The position numbers and the translations under genes were made by a program. The notes under the pieces were generated by a model. It saw nothing but the letters and a program-made list of their open reading frames with translations. It had not been told where the DNA came from and made no database searches. Positions 23,381 through 48,023 of a stretch of 64,000 nucleotides of DNA are shown piece by piece. Position 1 is the first letter of the stretch. Each line of letters begins with the position of its first letter. The DNA is from a bacterium (lineage in GTDB: Bacteria > Armatimonadota > Fimbriimonadia > Fimbriimonadales > Fimbriimonadaceae), in contig JAIXUN010000001.1 of the NCBI GenBank assembly GCA_027483535.1, positions 101,432-165,431 of the forward strand, written 5' to 3'.

Positions 23381-23386
23381 TACAAT
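23381..23386 (+). promoter_or_regulatory. -10 box upstream of tRNA-fragment array
   Basis: GG-TACAAT 11 nt before the first unit; similar GG-TAAACT/TACACT recurs 9 nt before each later unit and the tRNA. Confidence 0.6.
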
Positions 23387-23397
23387 ATCAATCTTCC

Positions 23398-23682
23398 GGG
23401 CGGTTAGCTCAGTGGTAGAGCATCCCGACTTCATCGGGAGTGTCGCCAGATTTCTAGAAAGCCATTCAAGGAATCGGTAAACTTAACTAAGCGGGCGGTT
23501 AGCTCAGTGGTAGAGCATCCCGATTCTATCGGGAGGGTCGCCAGATTCCTAGAAAGCTGTTCAAGGAATCGGTACACTTAACAAAGCGGGCGGTTAGCTC
23601 AGTGGTAGAGCATCCCGACTTCATCGGGAGGGTCGCCAGATTCCTAGAAAGCTATTCAAGGAATCGGTACACTTAACAAAGC
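23398..23682 (+). repeat. Three tandem 95-bp units: tRNA-Val 5' fragment + palindromic pseudo-anticodon arm + promoter-like tail
   Basis: Units start at 23398, 23493, 23588 (tRNA at 23683); first 25 nt identical to the tRNA; unit 1 differs from unit 3 at 5 sites, unit 2 from unit 3 at 4 sites. Confidence 0.97.
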
Positions 23683-23757
23683 GGGCGGTTAGCTCAGTGG
23701 TAGAGCACTTCGTTCACACCGAAGGGGTCGTAGGTTCAAGTCCTATACCGCCCACCA
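23683..23757 (+). tRNA. tRNA-Val (anticodon CAC)
   Basis: GGGCGGT/ACCGCCC acceptor stem, GCTC-AGTGGTA-GAGC D arm, CTTCG-TTCACAC-CGAAG anticodon arm, GTAGG-TTCAAGT-CCTAT T arm, encoded CCA. Confidence 0.97.
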
Positions 23758-23771
23758 TTTTTGAAGGTCCC

Positions 23772-24032
23772 ATGTGGACTCTTTACATCCTCCAAAGCGA
23801 ATCGTCCGGTCGGTTTTACGTCGGCCATACAAACGACATGGTGAGGCGGCTCGAAGAGCATCAATCCGGCCAAACAACCTCAACGCGAAATCGAGGACCC
23901 TGGAAAGTCGTCCACCGCGAGGTGTTCGAATCTAAACAACTCGCTGCGAATAGAGAGCGCCAGATCAAAAGTTGGAAGTCGCGGGTGGCGATTCTAGCTC
24001 TCATCGAGGAGTCCGAAACCGACGATCGGTAG
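23772..24032 (+). CDS. Stand-alone GIY-YIG nuclease (86 aa)
   Basis: MWTLYILQS...FYVGHTND..RRL.EH...T..RGPW.....E.F.....A..RE.QIK.WK: GIY/YIG dyad, conserved Arg, His and Glu. Confidence 0.93.
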   Translation: MWTLYILQSESSGRFYVGHTNDMVRRLEEHQSGQTTSTRNRGPWKVVHREVFESKQLAANRERQIKSWKSRVAILALIEESETDDR

Positions 24033-24087
24033 AGCTTCCCGATTCCATCGGGAGGGTCGTCCCGACCAGTCGGGATACGGCCCACCA
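24028..24087 (+). pseudogene. tRNA 3'-portion mimic with anticodon and T arms replaced by TCCCGA..TCGGGA palindromes
   Basis: GGTAGAGC-T-TCCCGATTCCATCGGGA-GGGTCG-TCCCGACCAGTCGGGA-T-ACGGCCC-ACCA, colinear with tRNA positions 17-75. Confidence 0.85.
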
Positions 24088-24100
24088 CCTCCAGATCCTG

Positions 24101-24289
24101 ATGTGGATCCTCTACATCCTCCATAGTGATTCCTCCGGCCTATTAGGCGAACCCAATCTGCGAATCGATCAGGCTGAAATTCCACCGACTCAACATATAC
24201 GCTCCGTCTTGCAGAGACCAGCCAATACAGAGGTGAATCGCTCGGGTCTGACGACGGGACGAGGAAACCCGACCAACACCCGACCTTAG
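24101..24289 (+). pseudogene. Degenerate second GIY-YIG copy
   Basis: MWILYILHSDSSG versus MWTLYILQSESSG; homology lost after about 13 codons; ATG exactly 329 bp after the first ATG. Confidence 0.8.
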
Positions 24290-24416
24290 ATAAATCAACT
24301 CCAAAACATCGCCTCAGCAAAATTGCCGGTAGCAAGATTGCTTGATCGGATGTATGGTGCCGTTAGCTGCAAAAGATTTGCTCTGTTGCTTCTATTGCTT
24401 TTCTGGGAGGAAAAAC

Positions 24417-24977
24417 ATGAAATCGATTAGAATTTTGGCAATTGCCACCGCACTCGGCGCCCTCGCCACCGCGCAAGCCGCTCAACAAACCTACACCTTT
24501 TCCGGAACCATCACCGGTTCCCTCGGAGGAACAAACTTCTCGGCCAAAGAGTTCAGCATCGTCGGAATCGGCGATAGCTCGACCATCGAAAGTCGGAGCT
24601 TTGGTTGGATCAACACGCTCTCTTCCAACACTTTGACCGTTACCGGATTCGCCCCGGTTTCCATTGCCAACCTTGGCGTGTTCATGAACAACGATGTCGA
24701 CGTAGTCGGTGCCTGGAGAACAGGAACGGAAAACCTCGACGTTTACAATGTCACGATCGGTGAAGATCACGACCTCACCGGTCCCTTTGGGCCAAAGTCT
24801 GGAGCCGCGTTTGCGAACCCGGGATCACCCTTTGCCACCAGCGGTGGCGAGTTCGTCATTGATAGGTTCGATTCTCCTGGTACATACAGCGTAAATGCGG
24901 TTGTTCCTGAACCGGCAACGTTTACGGCTTTGGGAATCGGTGCCCTTATGCTTCGACGACGACGGACTAGCGCTTAG
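24417..24977 (+). CDS. PEP-CTERM protein
   Basis: SD GGGAGG, signal peptide, VPEPATFTALGIGALMLRRRRTSA. Confidence 0.92.
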   Translation: MKSIRILAIATALGALATAQAAQQTYTFSGTITGSLGGTNFSAKEFSIVGIGDSSTIESRSFGWINTLSSNTLTVTGFAPVSIANLGVFMNNDVDVVGAWRTGTENLDVYNVTIGEDHDLTGPFGPKSGAAFANPGSPFATSGGEFVIDRFDSPGTYSVNAVVPEPATFTALGIGALMLRRRRTSA

Positions 24978-32880: not shown

Positions 32881-33693
32881 TTACTTGCTTCGCTTTCGGC
32901 GAACAACGGCGAGAGCGCCAAGACCAAGCGCGATCAGCGTGCCGGGCTCCGGCGTTTGCTGAAGGTTATAGTTGTCGAAGTAGGCATAAGCCGTTGCTCC
33001 GTTACCAAGACCCAGGTTAAAGATTCGCGAGGTCATATCGAAGTCAAAAACCGTCATTCCGGTTCCCGTTCCGGTGTAGCTCAGATCAAACCCACCCGAG
33101 AGAACGGGCACTCCGTTTACCTCATAGGAAACGACCGCTTCGGTCTGGGAAGCATATTCAACCTTTACTCCGAATCGGTTCCACGTTCCCCGCGTGACGT
33201 TGGGAACATCGGTCAAGAAGAAAGCGAGGGCACCCTGGGCGTTAGGAGCCAAACCGATGACTCGACCGTCACCGAGAATGCCGACCGATCCGAGAAGACT
33301 CGTTCCCCATGCCTCGAGCCCAAAGAATGCATCATTGTTGGCAATGGTCGGAAGGAAGATATCGACGGAAGAAGACAGCGTCCGCTGCGGTGCCGAGTAA
33401 ACGTAACCCGTTGCACCGTTCACGTCCGCCCATGCGAAAGACGAACCCGTTGCCAAGGTTCTTTGAAGTTTGATGGACTGAGTACCGCCGTTCGCTTGCT
33501 CATTGCTGAACGTGTACGTTCCAGACGTTTCGATACCGCCGTAGTTGCCAGTGGAGATGCCACCCTGGACAGCTGAACCAACCAAGAACGAGCCCAATGC
33601 ACCCGATTCGAAGTTGTCGTTTGCAATGACGGTTACCTGCGCCTGCGCCGCCACCGCGCCCAGAAGGACGAGAGAGATTAAGCCAATTTTCAT
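32881..33693 (-). CDS. PEP-CTERM protein (beta-sandwich/lectin-like)
   Basis: MKIGLISLVLLGAVAAQA signal; TPEPGTLIALGLGALAVVRRKRSK; ORF track extension to 34047 not credible. Confidence 0.9.
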   Translation of the reverse strand: MKIGLISLVLLGAVAAQAQVTVIANDNFESGALGSFLVGSAVQGGISTGNYGGIETSGTYTFSNEQANGGTQSIKLQRTLATGSSFAWADVNGATGYVYSAPQRTLSSSVDIFLPTIANNDAFFGLEAWGTSLLGSVGILGDGRVIGLAPNAQGALAFFLTDVPNVTRGTWNRFGVKVEYASQTEAVVSYEVNGVPVLSGGFDLSYTGTGTGMTVFDFDMTSRIFNLGLGNGATAYAYFDNYNLQQTPEPGTLIALGLGALAVVRRKRSK

Positions 33694-33898
33694 TTTAACT
33701 ACCGGGTGCCGAAATCCACATCGATCACGGACACACCCTATGTTAACGCGCAATTTTACGGATACAAGGAAGAAAGAACGTAACCGGCAAAAAAACTGGG
33801 GCTCCAAGCAGTTTTTACAGCATTTTCGGGCAGTTGAAGCGCCTCGATGCCTCATACAACCGTAAATCAACCCCGGCTGGGTGGATCGGCGGTCGTCG

Positions 33899-34450
33899 CT
33901 ATATTTCGTCTTGGTACCAGTCTTTCGCGGGATTGAAATTGGTGTCGCCGCAACCTGGAACTTGCTCGTAGCCAACTTCAATGGCGACCACTTTCCCACC
34001 TTTGATAATGTAGTCGTTGTAAAGATAGGCAAAATCTGCTCCCTCATGGTCCACTTTCACGGCATAACGCCAAATGAGGGAAGCCTTCATTCTGTGAACG
34101 TAATCCGGCGAACTAAGTTTCTCTTTCAACTCTTTAGATTTGATGCCAAGAGCGATTCCGTGCTTCGTCACTTTGTGCAGGCGACGTGTTTCGCGCTGAC
34201 TGCAAAACTTTTCGCTTTCGCAGGTGCTACGGGGTCCAAGGCGGACCAAAACGTGGGAATAATCGCAATCCACAACTTTTAAGGCAACGACATCTTCCCT
34301 TGGATCCAACCAAATGACTTGGGCAACTTCTCGCCTCCGAACCGACAATCCAGCGACCGCATCGGTGACCCTCGGCGAAACTCGCTTAATCGGAGGCTCG
34401 AGCCTTACTGGACTGAACGTAACTGCGGCGAGAATGGCGAGACCGATCAT
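33899..34450 (-). CDS. Secreted hypothetical protein
   Basis: 183-aa ORF with signal peptide, starts 3 nt after the S10 stop. Confidence 0.6.
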   Translation of the reverse strand: MIGLAILAAVTFSPVRLEPPIKRVSPRVTDAVAGLSVRRREVAQVIWLDPREDVVALKVVDCDYSHVLVRLGPRSTCESEKFCSQRETRRLHKVTKHGIALGIKSKELKEKLSSPDYVHRMKASLIWRYAVKVDHEGADFAYLYNDYIIKGGKVVAIEVGYEQVPGCGDTNFNPAKDWYQDEI

Positions 34451-45790: not shown

Positions 45791-48023
45791 TCTTGCCCTG
45801 GTCTGTTTCGCTCTCGTAGGCTCCGGTGCTGGCCAATCCAAGTATCTCCAAGCAGGACCGATTCAGGTCGGTGAGATTGCTGGACCCGCTCAGGTGCGAG
45901 CCGGGGAATCCACGGAATACCTCCTCAGTGTTCAGGGGTCTTACGACAACCCTTTTGATCCGAAGCAGATCGATGTGGAGGCGGTCATCGAGAGCGATGG
46001 CCAAACGGTCCTTCGCCGCCCTGCGTTCTTTGCCGAAGACTTTGAGCGTCGGCTTGTCGATGGCAAAGAGGTCGTGCAGAGTATCGGCAAGCGGGGCTGG
46101 CGGGTTCGAGTGAACTTTCCGGCAGCGAAAAGCTACCGGATGACCATCGTCGCGAAGGATCGATCTGGAACCGCCACCTCCAAACCGTTCAACGTATCGG
46201 TATCGAACCCCTCACCCACGAATCCAGGCTTCATTCGCGTTGCTCCCGATCAGAAGTTCTTTCAGTACGAGAACGGAAAACCGTACTTCCCTGTCGGTTC
46301 CAACGTGTGTTGGGGCGGCGATGCGGGCGTGTTCAATTTCGAATCATGGCTCCCGAAATACGCCCAACAAGGTTGCAACTACTTCCGAGTTTGGCTGAGC
46401 CCGACCTGGACAACCTTTGGGATGGAATCGAAGGGATCCAAGACGGATGGCAAGGGTCCAGGATTTCTCTCCCTGGAGGCGGCTTTTAAGCTGGATCGAG
46501 TGATGGAGCTTGCCCAGACGCACCAACTACGCGTCAAGCTCTGCTTTGAAAGCTACAACGTGTTGCGAGACAAAGACGCTTATCCGGCTTGGGAAGATAG
46601 CGTCTACAATCGCGATAACGGGGGTCCGCTTGTGGCCCCTCACCAGTTTTGGCGGGATCCAGACGCGCAGCGGATGTACCGCAACAAGATGCGCTATTTG
46701 GTGGCTCGCTATGGGGCAGATCCGAACGTGTTCGCCTGGGAGTTCTGGAACGAGGCGGACCTCACGAGAGACTTCCCAGCGGAGGAAGCCCGGGAGTGGC
46801 ATCGGGAGATGGGGGGTTATCTCCGCTCGATCGACGCCTACAAGCACTTGATCACCACGAGTTTTAGCAACGCGATGGGCGTTCGGGCGATCGACACGAT
46901 TCCCGAGATCGACTTCATTCAGACCCACCACTACGGCGGTCCCGATGTGATCTCGCAAGTGGCCATTCAGCAATCTCGAAAAGGGGGCTGGAACAAGCCG
47001 CATTACGTTGGGGAAATCGGAGCCGATTTCACCGGACCGCGTGCCTCGGACGACCCGGAAGGGCTACAGATTCACGATCCGCTCTGGATCAGCACGTGTA
47101 TGGGTTCGAGCGGAGCAGCGATGCCTTGGTGGTGGGATAGCCACATTGAGCCGTTCAACCTCTATCCGCTGTTTGGAGCGTTGGCGAGATTTGTGAAGGA
47201 CATCGACTTCCCGAACGAGGGCTTTCGACAAACCACTCCAAAATTCGCTTGGCAGTCGCCCGCACAGTCGGTGGCGCTTCGCGACCTAACTGTTCCGTCC
47301 GCGGCGGGCGTGTGGGAAGACTCGCCTTTGCATAAACCGAAGACGGTAGTGATCAACAAGGATGGCAAACCCGTATCCGGCGCGCCGATCGCCTCGTTCT
47401 TCCACGGAAGGCGGAACCACCCCAGTTGGTCCAATCCGGTGACGATCCAGGTCGATCTTCCCAGGAAGACGCGTTTCGACGTTGTTGTCGGCGATGTGTC
47501 TGGCTACGGTGGGGCTCGGCTGGAGATTCAGCTCGATAACCAAGTGGTGATGACGAGGGACTTTAGCGATCCTGACGACAACTCGAAGACAGATTCATTG
47601 ACCTCATATCGGGGGGCATACGGTTTCGATGTCTCCGCGGGCAAGCATACGATCGTGGTTCGAAACACGGGGAACGACTGGTTTGAAGCGAGCCTGCGAT
47701 TCAAGAATCTTCAACAGACCCTCACACCGCCTCTTATCGGCTGGGGCACGGTGGGTGATTCAGTAGTGTTGGCATGGGCTCGACTGGCCGACCGAACTTG
47801 GAAGAGAGTGTGTGAGAACAAGGAAACCATTCCGGCCTGCCCACCTTCCATTCTCACCATGAGCGGACTAGCGGCAGGCACATATGAGACCGAGATTTGG
47901 GATACCTGGAAAGGAGCCGCGATTCAGAGTCAAACCATTCGCGTAGGACTTGATGGAGTGCTTCGCGTAAGGCTTCCCGAAATGGATCGGGACTTCGCGG
48001 TGAAAGCCGTTCTTAAGCAGTAA
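45783..48023 (+). CDS. DUF5060-like domain + clan GH-A (GH5-like) glycoside hydrolase
   Basis: Y.NPFDP.QIDV N-domain; AWEFWNE acid/base and HYVGEIG nucleophile motifs. Confidence 0.82.
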   Translation: MTNLALVCFALVGSGAGQSKYLQAGPIQVGEIAGPAQVRAGESTEYLLSVQGSYDNPFDPKQIDVEAVIESDGQTVLRRPAFFAEDFERRLVDGKEVVQSIGKRGWRVRVNFPAAKSYRMTIVAKDRSGTATSKPFNVSVSNPSPTNPGFIRVAPDQKFFQYENGKPYFPVGSNVCWGGDAGVFNFESWLPKYAQQGCNYFRVWLSPTWTTFGMESKGSKTDGKGPGFLSLEAAFKLDRVMELAQTHQLRVKLCFESYNVLRDKDAYPAWEDSVYNRDNGGPLVAPHQFWRDPDAQRMYRNKMRYLVARYGADPNVFAWEFWNEADLTRDFPAEEAREWHREMGGYLRSIDAYKHLITTSFSNAMGVRAIDTIPEIDFIQTHHYGGPDVISQVAIQQSRKGGWNKPHYVGEIGADFTGPRASDDPEGLQIHDPLWISTCMGSSGAAMPWWWDSHIEPFNLYPLFGALARFVKDIDFPNEGFRQTTPKFAWQSPAQSVALRDLTVPSAAGVWEDSPLHKPKTVVINKDGKPVSGAPIASFFHGRRNHPSWSNPVTIQVDLPRKTRFDVVVGDVSGYGGARLEIQLDNQVVMTRDFSDPDDNSKTDSLTSYRGAYGFDVSAGKHTIVVRNTGNDWFEASLRFKNLQQTLTPPLIGWGTVGDSVVLAWARLADRTWKRVCENKETIPACPPSILTMSGLAAGTYETEIWDTWKGAAIQSQTIRVGLDGVLRVRLPEMDRDFAVKAVLKQ

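Follow-up and report, generated by a model that had tools for sequence, protein, structure and literature searches.

The tRNA-Val locus

The window, by which we mean the whole 64,000-nt stretch of DNA that was analyzed, carries an intact tRNA-Val(CAC) gene with an encoded CCA at positions 23683–23757 of the + strand (ARAGORN; Rfam tRNA, 71.1 bits). As the first-pass annotation of this DNA had claimed, the gene is preceded by three partial 5′ copies of itself, each 94–95 bp long and starting at 23399, 23493 and 23588, which were recovered as a period-95 tandem repeat extending from 23397 to 23707 (3.3 copies, 94% matches). Each copy contains tRNA positions 1–26, the same as in the real tRNA, followed by a palindrome where the 17-nt anticodon arm would be, then GGGTCG, and then an unrelated spacer that holds a second hairpin, GATTCCT..AGGAATC. 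The first unit (23399–23492, + strand) bears the palindrome TCCCGACTTCATCGGGA at 23423–23439, with variable-loop bases next to it and the spacer hairpin in the form GATTTCT..AGGAATC; the second (23493–23587, + strand) bears TCCCGATTCTATCGGGA at 23518–23534 and gave a weak Rfam tRNA match of 24 bits, under the threshold of 29; and the third (23588–23682, + strand) again bears TCCCGACTTCATCGGGA, at 23613–23629.

The stand-alone GIY-YIG gene expected after the tRNA was found as an open reading frame at 23772–24032 (+ strand; Pfam PF01541), which encodes an 86-aa minimal nuclease of the UPF0213/Slx1-like kind and whose ATG lies 14 nt downstream of the CCA. Its TAG stop codon falls within GGTAGAGC, the D-arm remnant of a 5′-truncated tRNA mimic (24028–24087, + strand) that overlaps the end of the gene. 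This mimic, likewise anticipated, consists of the 3′ half of a D arm, the palindrome TCCCGATTCCATCGGGA at the anticodon-arm position (24037–24053), GGGTCG, a second palindrome, TCCCGACCAGTCGGGA, at the T-arm position (24060–24075), and ACGGCCCACCA, and it ends in the acceptor 3′ strand, ACGGCCC-A-CCA. The same type of arrangement was seen at L001, L004, L005, L075 and other loci. What had been described as a decayed second nuclease turned out to be merely a truncated duplicate of about 46 nt (24093–24138, + strand; local alignment to 23765–23809), comprising the ribosome-binding region and the first ~13 codons of the nuclease gene with unrelated sequence beyond, and Pfam returned no match in this fragment or after it. 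It is the beginning of a second unit, the remainder of which was replaced by unrelated sequence.

The pattern TCCCGA-N3–7-TCGGGA occurs six times in the 64-kb window, against 0.09 occurrences expected. Five of the six lie within the locus, as TCCCGA-N4/5-TCGGGA at tRNA arm positions, in agreement with the count given previously, while the sixth, at 47975, is without tRNA-like flanks. The inserted DNA holds the GIY-YIG ORF only, and no integrase, transposase or other recombinase was found within ~10 kb on either side, which upholds the first-pass annotation over that distance. A search with Rfam in E-value mode across the locus gave tRNA and sub-threshold tRNA-like matches and nothing else, and we rejected the idea that the fragments belong to a known RNA family.

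Presence, absence and copy number in related strains

An assembly artefact had been named as an outcome that would undo the first interpretation; the locus is not one, because independent metagenome runs contain it at about 18x. The number of 5′ units in the window may be four to five instead of three, since the unit unitig has a depth of 73–84x and the flanks 18–19x. The opposite state, an empty allele of the kind that the first-pass annotation had suggested looking for, was found in run X4, in which a flank 99.7% identical to ours joins position 23396 to 23682, skipping exactly 285 bp, the length of three units, and in which depth is zero across 23764–24250. X4 is a nearly identical strain from another sample, and it has neither the fragment array nor the nuclease gene; past its tRNA, the readable 30 nt match nothing in the 64-kb window. 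With X4 empty and the arrays varying in size, the architecture is not fixed among relatives. Two close relatives, L081 and L083, have two copies and one copy, differently arranged, and a 33-bp inverted repeat present in L081 was not found in the window. Run X5 differs from the window at no position of the intact nuclease ORF and at 13 positions between 24036 and 24233. When RNA evidence was sought in public runs for a Flavobacterium psychrophilum locus, the depths of the assembled contigs were ambiguous.

The GIY-YIG protein

The 86-aa protein matched PF01541 at 59.2 bits (cut-off 22.6; E = 4.9e-16), and the only other Pfam match was a weak one to T5orf172. It was matched by phmmer to PDB entries 1ZG2 (E = 2e-8) and 1YWL (1.8e-5), and its AF2 model (pLDDT 84) gave 1ZG2, Slx1 and I-TevI as best fold matches, with 1ZG2 ranked first by Foldseek and Slx1 (7CQ3) aligned at an rmsd of 1.7 Å over 71 columns. 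In a 30-sequence alignment (A1), each of the catalytic residues Y5, Y16, G18, R26, H30 and E62 is either invariant or conserved in 90% or more of the sequences. Profile score and catalytic residues thus both place the protein in the GIY-YIG superfamily, and sequence and fold place it among the UPF0213 or prokaryotic Slx1-like minimal GIY-YIG proteins, with no extra domains. Its closest known kin, BH0048 (1ZG2) and EF2693 (1YWL), have no assigned function. The protein is the catalytic core only; it has no separate DNA-binding module of the kind through which homing endonucleases recognize a long, specific site.

The nuclease gene is under purifying selection, with dN/dS values that range from 0.05 to 0.18, and the family is large, numbering about 5,500 clusters when grouped at 50% identity (E ≤ 1e-10). 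We rejected a role as a defence or phage protein: PADLOC gave no meaningful match, PHROGs nothing useful, and NCBIfam only a weak match to a group I intron endonuclease. Carriage by phages or plasmids was also rejected, as homologs in those collections were rare and distant (<42% identity), and for the same reason we saw no vehicle of transfer.

Recurrence across phyla

To the proposal that small GIY-YIG genes of this kind keep company with tRNA genes, the homologous loci gave a clear answer. A same-strand tRNA ends within 150 nt upstream of the nuclease start at 50 of the 69 loci that have enough upstream sequence; by chance, a tRNA that close would be expected with a frequency of 0.0006 per locus (binomial P of about 1e-145). 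The palindrome, too, accompanies the gene, as had been predicted: at 43 of 79 loci it falls in the interval from −25 to +95 around the nuclease stop, where it occupies the anticodon-arm position in a fragment of tRNA, and the T arm and acceptor of that fragment agree with those of the local tRNA. The reverse search, for the palindrome within a tRNA context, matched at least 120 loci; among the 120 matches listed, 72 have a tRNA within 150 nt and 54 a GIY-YIG gene within 600 nt; about half of these hairpin fragments lack a nuclease gene in their vicinity. The arrangement of nuclease, tRNA and palindrome was found in at least seven bacterial phyla, including Bacteroidota, Acidobacteriota, Armatimonadota, Chloroflexota, Verrucomicrobiota and Patescibacteria, and the host tRNAs are diverse (Val, Ala, Pro, Lys, Met, Arg, Asn, Thr and more). 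The same tRNA is occupied in a dozen species of Acidobacteriaceae, in which the gene is strongly conserved.

The overall plan of the loci is [5′ fragments]n – intact tRNA – [nuclease gene + 3′ fragment]m. Upstream copies (n = 187) keep tRNA positions 1–26 (median 26/26) and have lost the 3′ end, while downstream copies (n = 139) keep the 3′ part (median 30/33) and have lost the 5′ end; the core common to both comprises the 3′ half of the D stem, the hairpin and the variable loop. The ORF always runs into a hairpin-bearing fragment or stops directly ahead of one, so that gene and hairpin would be inherited and duplicated as one unit. Some arrays are long: nine nuclease units at L171, at least 12 at L074, L075 and L078 together, at least 18 upstream fragments with three nuclease units at the tRNA-Lys of L131, and at least 10 fragments at L024. 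Among the carriers of the element are cultured strains: Leadbetterella sp. DM7 (L065), Parapedobacter indicus RK1 (L049), Mucilaginibacter terrigena (L074, L075 and L078) and Paraflavitalea speifideaquila (L141). ARAGORN labels some fragments as suppressor, Gln, Tyr or Cys tRNAs. An intact tRNA with a partial 3′ copy at the far end of an insert also marks the islands and prophages that enter tRNA genes by tyrosine integrases; here, however, the insert of ~250–350 bp contains no recombinase, the anticodon arm of the displaced copy is replaced, and mirror-image 5′ fragments accumulate upstream. We also rejected the upstream fragment and the downstream mimic as the two ends of one tRNA-carrying transposon, because many loci have just one of the two.

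The nuclease gene is always co-oriented with the tRNA or tRNA-like unit that it follows, at a distance of 4–150 nt, with spacers that can be as short as 4–11 nt. Together with the unit at L105, which uses the Shine-Dalgarno sequence of the host gene that lies downstream, and with the acceptor 3′ strand and CCA that terminate the mimic, this is what one would expect if the tRNA-like pieces were a device for expression or processing, the nuclease being a passenger on the tRNA promoter with its function elsewhere, for example in repair, the pieces serving as RNase P, Z or E signals for its mRNA, and the arrays being neutral by-products of recombination. We consider this very unlikely. The device would leave unexplained the upstream fragment arrays that contain no ORF, the hairpin fragments at tRNAs without a nuclease gene, the invariant sequence of the hairpin stem (see below) and the joint absence of fragments and gene from the empty allele, and RNase P and RNase Z require an acceptor 5′ strand, which is missing from the mimic.

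The hairpin

The hairpin has a GC-rich stem, TCCCGR/YCGGGA, and a variable loop. Five base pairs of the stem are invariant in 318 instances across phyla, and the sixth pair covaries (A-T in 240, G-C in 73, mismatched in three); homologs in Patescibacteria have another palindrome, TCGAGGATCCTCGA. The hairpin also occurs in or beside the T arm, in the mimic of the window and at L147 and L036. The loops found in Acidobacteriota and Armatimonadota are tight, of four or five bases, and bear no relation to the anticodon. Some copies, most of them from Bacteroidota, retain bases of the local anticodon loop and are changed in the stem alone (11 five-mer matches versus 3.3 expected); replacement of the anticodon arm is thus not wholesale, a feature that the model of the first-pass annotation does not predict. 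Cutting of the palindrome at its centre with imprecise repair was rejected: it predicts hypervariable loops, and in most arrays every unit has the same loop.

Because the anticodon arm is the most variable part of the tRNA, and the conserved D and T arms remain and could be used as homology, the replacement would suit an ordinary free-standing homing endonuclease, similar to the Seg proteins of T4, whose target is the intact tRNA gene, for instance the DNA of its anticodon arm; hairpin copies would then be homology arms immune to cleavage, and the arrays scars of cutting and repair. The polymorphism seen in X4, which is presence or absence at the same site in close relatives, fits this explanation, and the full-length stand-alone tRNAs at L111 (Ala, GGC) and L165 (Val, CAC), which combine the hairpin stem with the correct anticodon, have the appearance of functional alleles that resist cutting. 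There is precedent for the genomic setting as well, in that T4 SegB is a GIY-YIG homing endonuclease within a tRNA gene cluster (PMC2330249). An immune allele, however, could have any sequence, whereas here the stem, which covaries, is invariant from phylum to phylum, and the hairpin is also found in or beside the T arm. The targets would have to include many different anticodon arms for a protein without a DNA-binding domain, and beside the gene in the occupied allele there is still an intact tRNA that could be cleaved.

The likeness to T4-type free-standing GIY-YIG genes extends to the domain, to a stand-alone gene among tRNA genes, to variation in presence between close relatives, and to the presumed mode of spread, in which breaks are repaired and the flanks co-converted. 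Seg proteins, however, are ~200 aa or more with DNA-binding domains, whereas the protein here is an 86-aa core of the Slx1/UPF0213 branch, and Seg genes reside in phages, whereas this element is chromosomal and found in many bacterial phyla. We know of no Seg gene with palindrome-substituted tRNA fragments or tandem arrays, and we judge ordinary homing to be quite unlikely.

A different set of observations recalls toxin-antitoxin systems of type III. In the Bacteroidota loci L070, L075, L131 and L065 the order is promoter, repeat array, (tRNA), terminator and nuclease gene, and the layout of ToxIN, with a repeat array before a small nuclease gene, is similar. Like ToxIN, CptIN and TenpIN, these loci would place tandem structured repeats before a small nuclease gene in one transcript, with a terminator in some of them. 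The layout varies, however: arrays lie upstream in the window and at L024, L070, L131 and others, with the intact tRNA between array and nuclease gene, many loci have no upstream array, and the terminator-like hairpin was found in Bacteroidota loci only. The nuclease could accordingly belong to an RNA-level, toxin-antitoxin-like or autoregulatory system, acting on tRNA or tRNA-like RNA, in which co-transcribed hairpin fragments are pseudo-substrate RNAs that bind the protein and neutralize or regulate it, and fragments without a nuclease gene are orphan antidotes. The common core of the fragments does resemble a protein-binding RNA module, retention of local anticodon-loop bases is what substrate mimicry predicts, and nuclease lineages within Acidobacteriota follow the tRNA type, Val versus Ala. 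Metatranscriptome words cover the fragment unit of a Flavobacterium locus, a signal that is weak because these are assembled Logan contigs and DNA carry-over is possible. In addition, a prokaryotic Slx1-like GIY-YIG domain is fused to a TrmH-type tRNA methyltransferase, for which a role in RNA metabolism has been suggested (Dunin-Horkawicz et al., 2006; PMC1564403); that paper mentions no linkage of Slx1-like proteins to tRNA genes or palindromes.

Several findings speak against such a system, which we regard as unlikely. Nine to 12 tandem toxin genes would be atypical of toxin-antitoxin loci, and the antidote would not be in excess, because many loci have a single fragment, 3′ of the ORF. The tight loops of Acidobacteriota and Armatimonadota bear no relation to the anticodon, and mismatches in the stem show no bias for G.U over A.C (five G.T versus four A.C), counts that are uninformative on selection at the RNA level through tolerance of G.U. 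The PADLOC search, as noted, was without a meaningful match. Type III toxins are unrelated endoRNases, whereas here the repeats are tRNA fragments and the gene itself is amplified; to our knowledge, no GIY-YIG enzyme acts as an RNase, or has any activity on RNA.

Discussion

The first-pass annotation had proposed that the nuclease and the palindrome form a pair that amplifies tRNA fragments, in the manner of REP palindromes and their RAYT enzymes. The pairing itself stood, in that the linkage holds in both directions of search and in at least seven phyla and arrays are common; cutting or binding of the palindrome by the protein is putative, and the protein might just as well cut the intact tRNA gene or act on RNA. 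The comparison with REP/RAYT did not stand, because the defining enzyme differs. Both systems would join a nuclease gene to short, flanking, GC-rich palindromes that are amplified in the genome, with some copies at a distance, but RAYTs are HUH (Y1) enzymes of the IS200/IS605 type, whereas the locus encodes a GIY-YIG protein and no such transposase. REPs are dispersed between genes throughout the genome; of the six palindromes in the window, five sit inside partial tRNA copies beside a real tRNA, each at the position of an arm, and one has no tRNA-like flanks. In other genomes, too, the palindromes adjoin tRNAs, although the search pattern itself required tRNA-like flanks.

The explanation that we favor, if with slightly less than even confidence, is that a minimal nuclease of the Slx1/UPF0213 type and its cognate hairpin make up a selfish mini-element that lives in partial tRNA duplications and amplifies them. 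The element would have two parts. The first would be the GIY-YIG gene, of ~80–86 aa with intact catalytic residues and no DNA-binding domain, expressed by read-through from the tRNA promoter; the second would be the cognate hairpin, placed where the anticodon arm, or occasionally the T arm, belongs in partial copies of the host tRNA. Acting on DNA, the nuclease would nick or break the tRNA gene, its vicinity or the hairpin copies, and the hairpin may serve as its binding or immunity site. Annealing of strands out of register, or unequal exchange between tandem tRNA segments, would then enlarge the arrays of fragments and genes, and through the same repair the unit could be copied to a tRNA gene of like type that is still empty, which would be possible because tRNA sequence is conserved between species. 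One intact tRNA would always be retained because selection removes cells that lose it. The association was not described in the open-access papers and bioRxiv preprints that we could search, and the element looks undescribed.

The selfish mini-element has difficulties of its own. An 86-aa protein has no obvious means to recognize a long DNA site; cutting of the intact tRNA gene would leave the occupied allele cleavable; and cutting of the hairpin would not explain invasion of empty sites. The retention of anticodon-loop bases is not predicted by simple gene conversion from a foreign cassette, and about half of the hairpin fragments among the matches listed stand without a nearby nuclease gene. 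Conservation at the same tRNA in Acidobacteriaceae would also fit a function that benefits the host or is addictive.

Two bolder extensions seem to us very improbable even when taken together. In one, the 86-aa protein would function as a ribonucleoprotein with a tRNA-derived RNA, of which the hairpin would be a handle for the protein and the adjoining tRNA half a guide to tRNA genes or tRNAs, namely positions 1–26 in upstream fragments and 44–76 in the fragment that overlaps the 3′ end of the ORF; the omega-RNA of TnpB/IscB likewise overlaps the 3′ end of the nuclease ORF and extends into the flanking target. In the other, the element would represent a new class of mobile element that turns the stem in a tRNA arm into its own hairpin, sparing the loop, and for which the universal conservation of tRNA genes serves as a landing pad.

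If the selfish mini-element is real, a unit of 250–350 bp parasitizes tRNA genes in many phyla; few self-contained selfish units known to us are that small. Many tRNA "pseudogenes" and odd tRNA calls in annotations would be accounted for, as would assembly breaks at tRNA loci and gene calls that are over-extended at the N terminus and begin within a tRNA. The element would also offer a natural system for nuclease-driven repeat expansion and, possibly, a minimal nuclease, specific for sequence or structure and partnered by a defined 17-nt hairpin, that lends itself to direct tests in vitro. If right, this reading would give a biological context to a small "hypothetical" protein that is among the commonest in bacteria.

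Organization of the tRNA-Val(CAC) locus

The sole tRNA that ARAGORN found in the 64 kb was tRNA-Val(CAC) at 23683–23757 (Rfam, 71 bits). Tandem Repeats Finder reported a 95-bp repeat at 23397–23707 (3.3 copies, 94% matches), and direct reading gave three full upstream units, in agreement with the three upstream partial tRNA copies of the first-pass annotation. Each unit consisted of four pieces in fixed order: tRNA nucleotides 1–26 (acceptor 5′ strand, D arm and position 26), matching the real gene at every base; a palindrome of 17 nt, TCCCGA-N5-TCGGGA, in the exact place of the 17-nt anticodon arm; GGGTCG, corresponding to the variable loop and first T-stem base; and a spacer of ~47 nt of unrelated sequence, which contained its own hairpin. 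This second hairpin, GATT(T/C)CT-N13-AGGAATC, is not tRNA-derived (23440–23475, 23535–23570 and 23630–23665), and the upstream units of other phyla, which measured 71–76 bp, lacked it.

The GIY-YIG ORF (23772–24032; 86 codons; PF01541, E = 4.9e-16) started 14 nt past the tRNA CCA, as first annotated; the longest ORF in its frame (23697–24032, 111 aa) had a GTG start inside the tRNA. Its TAG stop fell within GGTAGAGC, the D-loop/D-stem remnant of a 5′-truncated tRNA copy (the mimic, 24028–24087) that carried one palindrome in the anticodon-arm position and a second in the T-arm position, and that ended in ACGGCCC-A-CCA. What had been annotated as a decayed second nuclease 3′ of the mimic turned out to be only a 46-nt duplicate (24093–24138) covering the ribosome-binding region and about 13 codons of the nuclease gene. 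The palindrome pattern was observed six times in the window, compared with 0.09 expected; the sixth match (47975–47992, TCCCGAAATGGATCGGGA) had no tRNA-like flanks and is probably a chance match.

Neighboring genes encoded a Kdo transferase, a PEP-CTERM protein, a DUF5695 protein, ArgG and a sigma factor, and no recombinase genes were found within about 10 kb to either side, consistent with the earlier claim that integrases and transposases are absent. The closest database relatives of the window were loci L081 (85–86% protein identity), with two nuclease copies and other genes between them, and L083 (79%), with a tRNA, a nuclease and a mimic reduced to a decayed start. Gene content from the tRNA to DUF5695 was not alike in the window, L081 and L083, and this segment is therefore variable. 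Several PEP-CTERM proteins were encoded around the locus (24417–24977 and 32881–34047 in the window; L081:429-1160). A 33-bp inverted repeat, GTGTAACCTATGTGTCCGGAACGATCTGTAACC, flanked both nuclease copies and a PEP-CTERM-like ORF in L081 (L081:41-73 and L081:1953-1985); it was not found in the window, and may mark the terminus of an IS or MITE, or stem from assembly where the contig ends.

Strain variation in metagenomes

Two freshwater metagenome runs (X1 and X2) contained the locus at about 18x depth, which argues against an assembly artefact. Contigs there ended at the repeat, and the unitig of the upstream repeat unit reached 73–84x, which, set against the depth of the locus, suggests 4–5 upstream units instead of three. 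At the loose ends (window positions 23397 and 23757) we found contigs of the same depth as this genome, some of which closed with the same tRNA 5′ segment and then GAGCATCCC, while others finished in a second Val-like tRNA with GTAGAGCATCTGGGCTA 13 nt after it; given the matching depth, the window's genome probably contains further fragment-bearing tRNA loci.

The first-pass annotation had proposed looking for an empty allele in relatives, and one was present in X4, a different sample from the same study. The upstream flank of the X4 contig aligned to the window over 351 nt with one difference, joined 23396 straight to 23682, thereby skipping 285 bp (exactly three units), continued through the tRNA and departed from the window 1 nt past the CCA into unrelated sequence. 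Since X4 also had no depth over 23764–24250, we concluded that it contains a near-identical strain without the fragment array and without the nuclease unit. Run X5 showed no differences from the window in the ORF and 13 in the following 200 nt.

Linkage of nuclease, tRNA and palindrome across bacteria

A homolog search with the protein, keeping one genome per species, yielded 80 loci, spread over Armatimonadota, Acidobacteriota, Chloroflexota, Bacteroidota, Verrucomicrobiota and Patescibacteria, with a few from other groups. The predicted enrichment at tRNA 3′ ends was borne out: of the 69 loci whose upstream sequence reached 150 nt or more, 50 had a tRNA on the same strand that ended within 150 nt of the ORF start, and in 43 it ended within 60 nt, compared with a chance expectation of 0.0006 per locus (from tRNA density elsewhere in the same loci). 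Co-occurrence with the palindrome, likewise anticipated, was seen in 43/79 loci, where TCC[CG][GA]-N3-11-[CT][CG]GGA lay at −25 to +95 relative to the stop codon and occupied the position of the anticodon arm in a partial tRNA copy; the T arm and acceptor of that copy matched the upstream tRNA. The stop codon itself came from tRNA-derived sequence, being the TAG of U8-A9-G10 in Bacteroidota, the D-loop TAG in the window and its relatives, and inside the hairpin loop in some loci.

We also searched in reverse with the pattern AGAGCR-TCCCGR-N3-8-YCGGGA-RGGTC, leaving protein information unused, and recovered at least 120 loci. Among the 120 matches listed, 72 had a tRNA no more than 150 nt away and 54 a GIY-YIG homolog no more than 600 nt away; the tRNAs included Val, Ala, Pro, Lys, Met, Arg, Asn, a Thr-Tyr-Gly-Thr operon and Ile-Ala. 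That the arrangement is purely an expression device is very unlikely, as this would leave fragments without genes unexplained. In a MAG labelled Flavobacterium psychrophilum (L137:4059-4290, − strand), two 5′ hairpin fragments lay between the promoter and tRNA-Val(TAC), and no nuclease gene was found near them; thus, a MAG bearing the name of a well-studied pathogen of fish has such fragments too.

Anatomy of fragments and arrays

Hairpin copies 5′ of the intact tRNA (n = 187, all loci) kept positions 1–26 (median 26/26 identical) and only about 9 nt 3′ of the hairpin, while downstream copies (n = 139) kept the 3′ part (median 30/33) and only about 10 nt 5′ of the hairpin. This polarity gives the layout [5′ fragment]n - tRNA - [3′ fragment]m. 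One or more spacers contain the nuclease ORF, which usually comes directly after the intact tRNA (tRNA - gene - 3′ fragment) and sometimes, in L003, L092, L138 and L202, lies upstream of the intact tRNA, preceded by a 5′ fragment or a full-length hairpin tRNA.

Tandem arrays were common. Upstream fragments reached six units in each of L011, L016 and L043, eight in L070, at least 10 in L024 and at least 18 in L131, and nuclease units reached three in L056, nine in L171 and at least 12 in three Mucilaginibacter terrigena contigs (L074, L075 and L078). In L105 the repeat unit took in 21 nt of the host trailer, including the Shine-Dalgarno sequence of the host gene that follows; the host stretch duplicated there starts near tRNA position 15 and stops 21 nt beyond the tRNA. 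Some downstream fragments carried 25–35-nt insertions in the T loop or hairpin loop (L070:3295-3340, L036, L038 and L072), a hint that these loops may be especially prone to insertion or breakage.

Conservation of the hairpin and retention of the anticodon loop

The stem TCCCG/CGGGA was present in 318/493 paired arms in tRNA-like context. The sixth pair was A-T in 240, G-C in 73 and mismatched in three, and therefore covaries; because spacing between the 5-bp stems ranged from 5 to 11 nt, a folded hairpin is favored over a rigid double-stranded dimer site. Homing by an ordinary endonuclease, with the hairpin copies immune to it, is a quite doubtful alternative to a selfish nuclease-hairpin unit, since it leaves the invariant stem unexplained. 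Another perfect palindrome, (A)TCGAGGATCCTCGA(T), replaced TCCCGR..YCGGGA just 3′ of the GIY-YIG stop in L018, L025, L040, L044 and L051 (Patescibacteria and one Gammaproteobacteria MAG), and this differing palindrome suggests that protein and palindrome co-vary. In L044, a D-stem-like GGAGCA stood just before it. The hairpin also replaced or lay beside the T arm (window, L081 and L147/L053) or sat within a T-loop insertion (L036 and L038).

Some copies, most of them from Bacteroidota, kept bases 33–37/38 of the local tRNA's anticodon loop in the hairpin loop, between the invariant arms, for example in Arg(TCT), Lys(TTT), Val(TAC) and Ala(GGC). Five-mer matches numbered 11 (3.3 expected; maximum 9 in 1000 shuffles) and triplet matches 37 (16 expected; maximum 27 in 1000 shuffles). 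Two stand-alone full-length tRNA genes, L111:5662-5736 (Ala, GGC) and L165:7156-7232 (Val, CAC), had the anticodon stem TCCCG/CGGGA, a loop bearing the anticodon that fits the tRNA body, and promoter-like upstream sequence; neither a normal tRNA copy nor a nuclease was found within 1.5 kb, and both may be functional "converted" tRNAs. From these genes and the retained loops, the stem, not the whole arm, seems to be the replaced part. Alternatively, hairpin-stem tRNAs can function and their loops are re-selected. No mechanism is known to us by which both stem strands would be rewritten and the loop spared. An RNA-level system laid out like ToxIN would account for both the common fragment core and the loop mimicry, but we judge it unlikely, because it leaves gene arrays of 9–12 copies unexplained and requires an RNase activity, none being known for the GIY-YIG fold.

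The protein and its relatives

The nuclease is a minimal GIY-YIG core whose nearest relatives of solved structure are two UPF0213 proteins (1ZG2 and 1YWL) and the Slx1 nuclease domain; its AlphaFold model (pLDDT 84) had the expected beta-beta-alpha-beta-alpha-alpha layout. Catalytic Tyr, Tyr, Arg, His and Glu were conserved, and so was a family-specific signature, STRNRGPWK and RERQIKSWKS. Comparing the window gene with its nearest relatives, and these with one another, gave a dN/dS of 0.05–0.18. A profile search matched 23,471 clusters (50% identity) at E ≤ 1e-3 and 5,512 at E ≤ 1e-10. Many of these homologs were over-extended by 20–60 aa at the N terminus or were pairwise fusions, which is what gene calling across tRNAs and tandem units should produce; over-long N termini at these loci are a systematic gene-calling artefact. 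In a neighbor-joining tree, Ala-associated and Val-associated genes of Acidobacteriota formed separate clades, and the Val-associated ones clustered with those of Chloroflexota and Armatimonadota, a pattern that is no more than suggestive given that the tree rests on only 80 residues.

Source databases named the homologs only "GIY-YIG nuclease family protein" or "putative endonuclease," and in open-access papers and bioRxiv preprints we found no description of their tRNA linkage or palindrome. Neither is described in a study of tRNA gene fragments (PMC9897764) or in a GIY-YIG phylogenomic analysis (PMC1564403), which treats stand-alone prokaryotic Slx1-like proteins as the minimal variant and records one fused to a TrmH-type tRNA methyltransferase.

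A candidate selfish element

Several facts point to nuclease and hairpin as a selfish unit: nuclease, tRNA and hairpin are tightly linked to one another, the ORF ends in the fragment, whole units are amplified in tandem, an empty allele exists, no other mobility gene is present, the protein is under purifying selection and the stem is under selection too. Its engine would most likely be break-induced recombination among partial tRNA copies, which would account for arrays on either side of the tRNA, for one intact tRNA being kept and for tRNA conservation serving as homology. We file the element with homing-endonuclease or nuclease-plus-palindrome selfish elements, and there is a real chance that it represents a new kind of selfish element.
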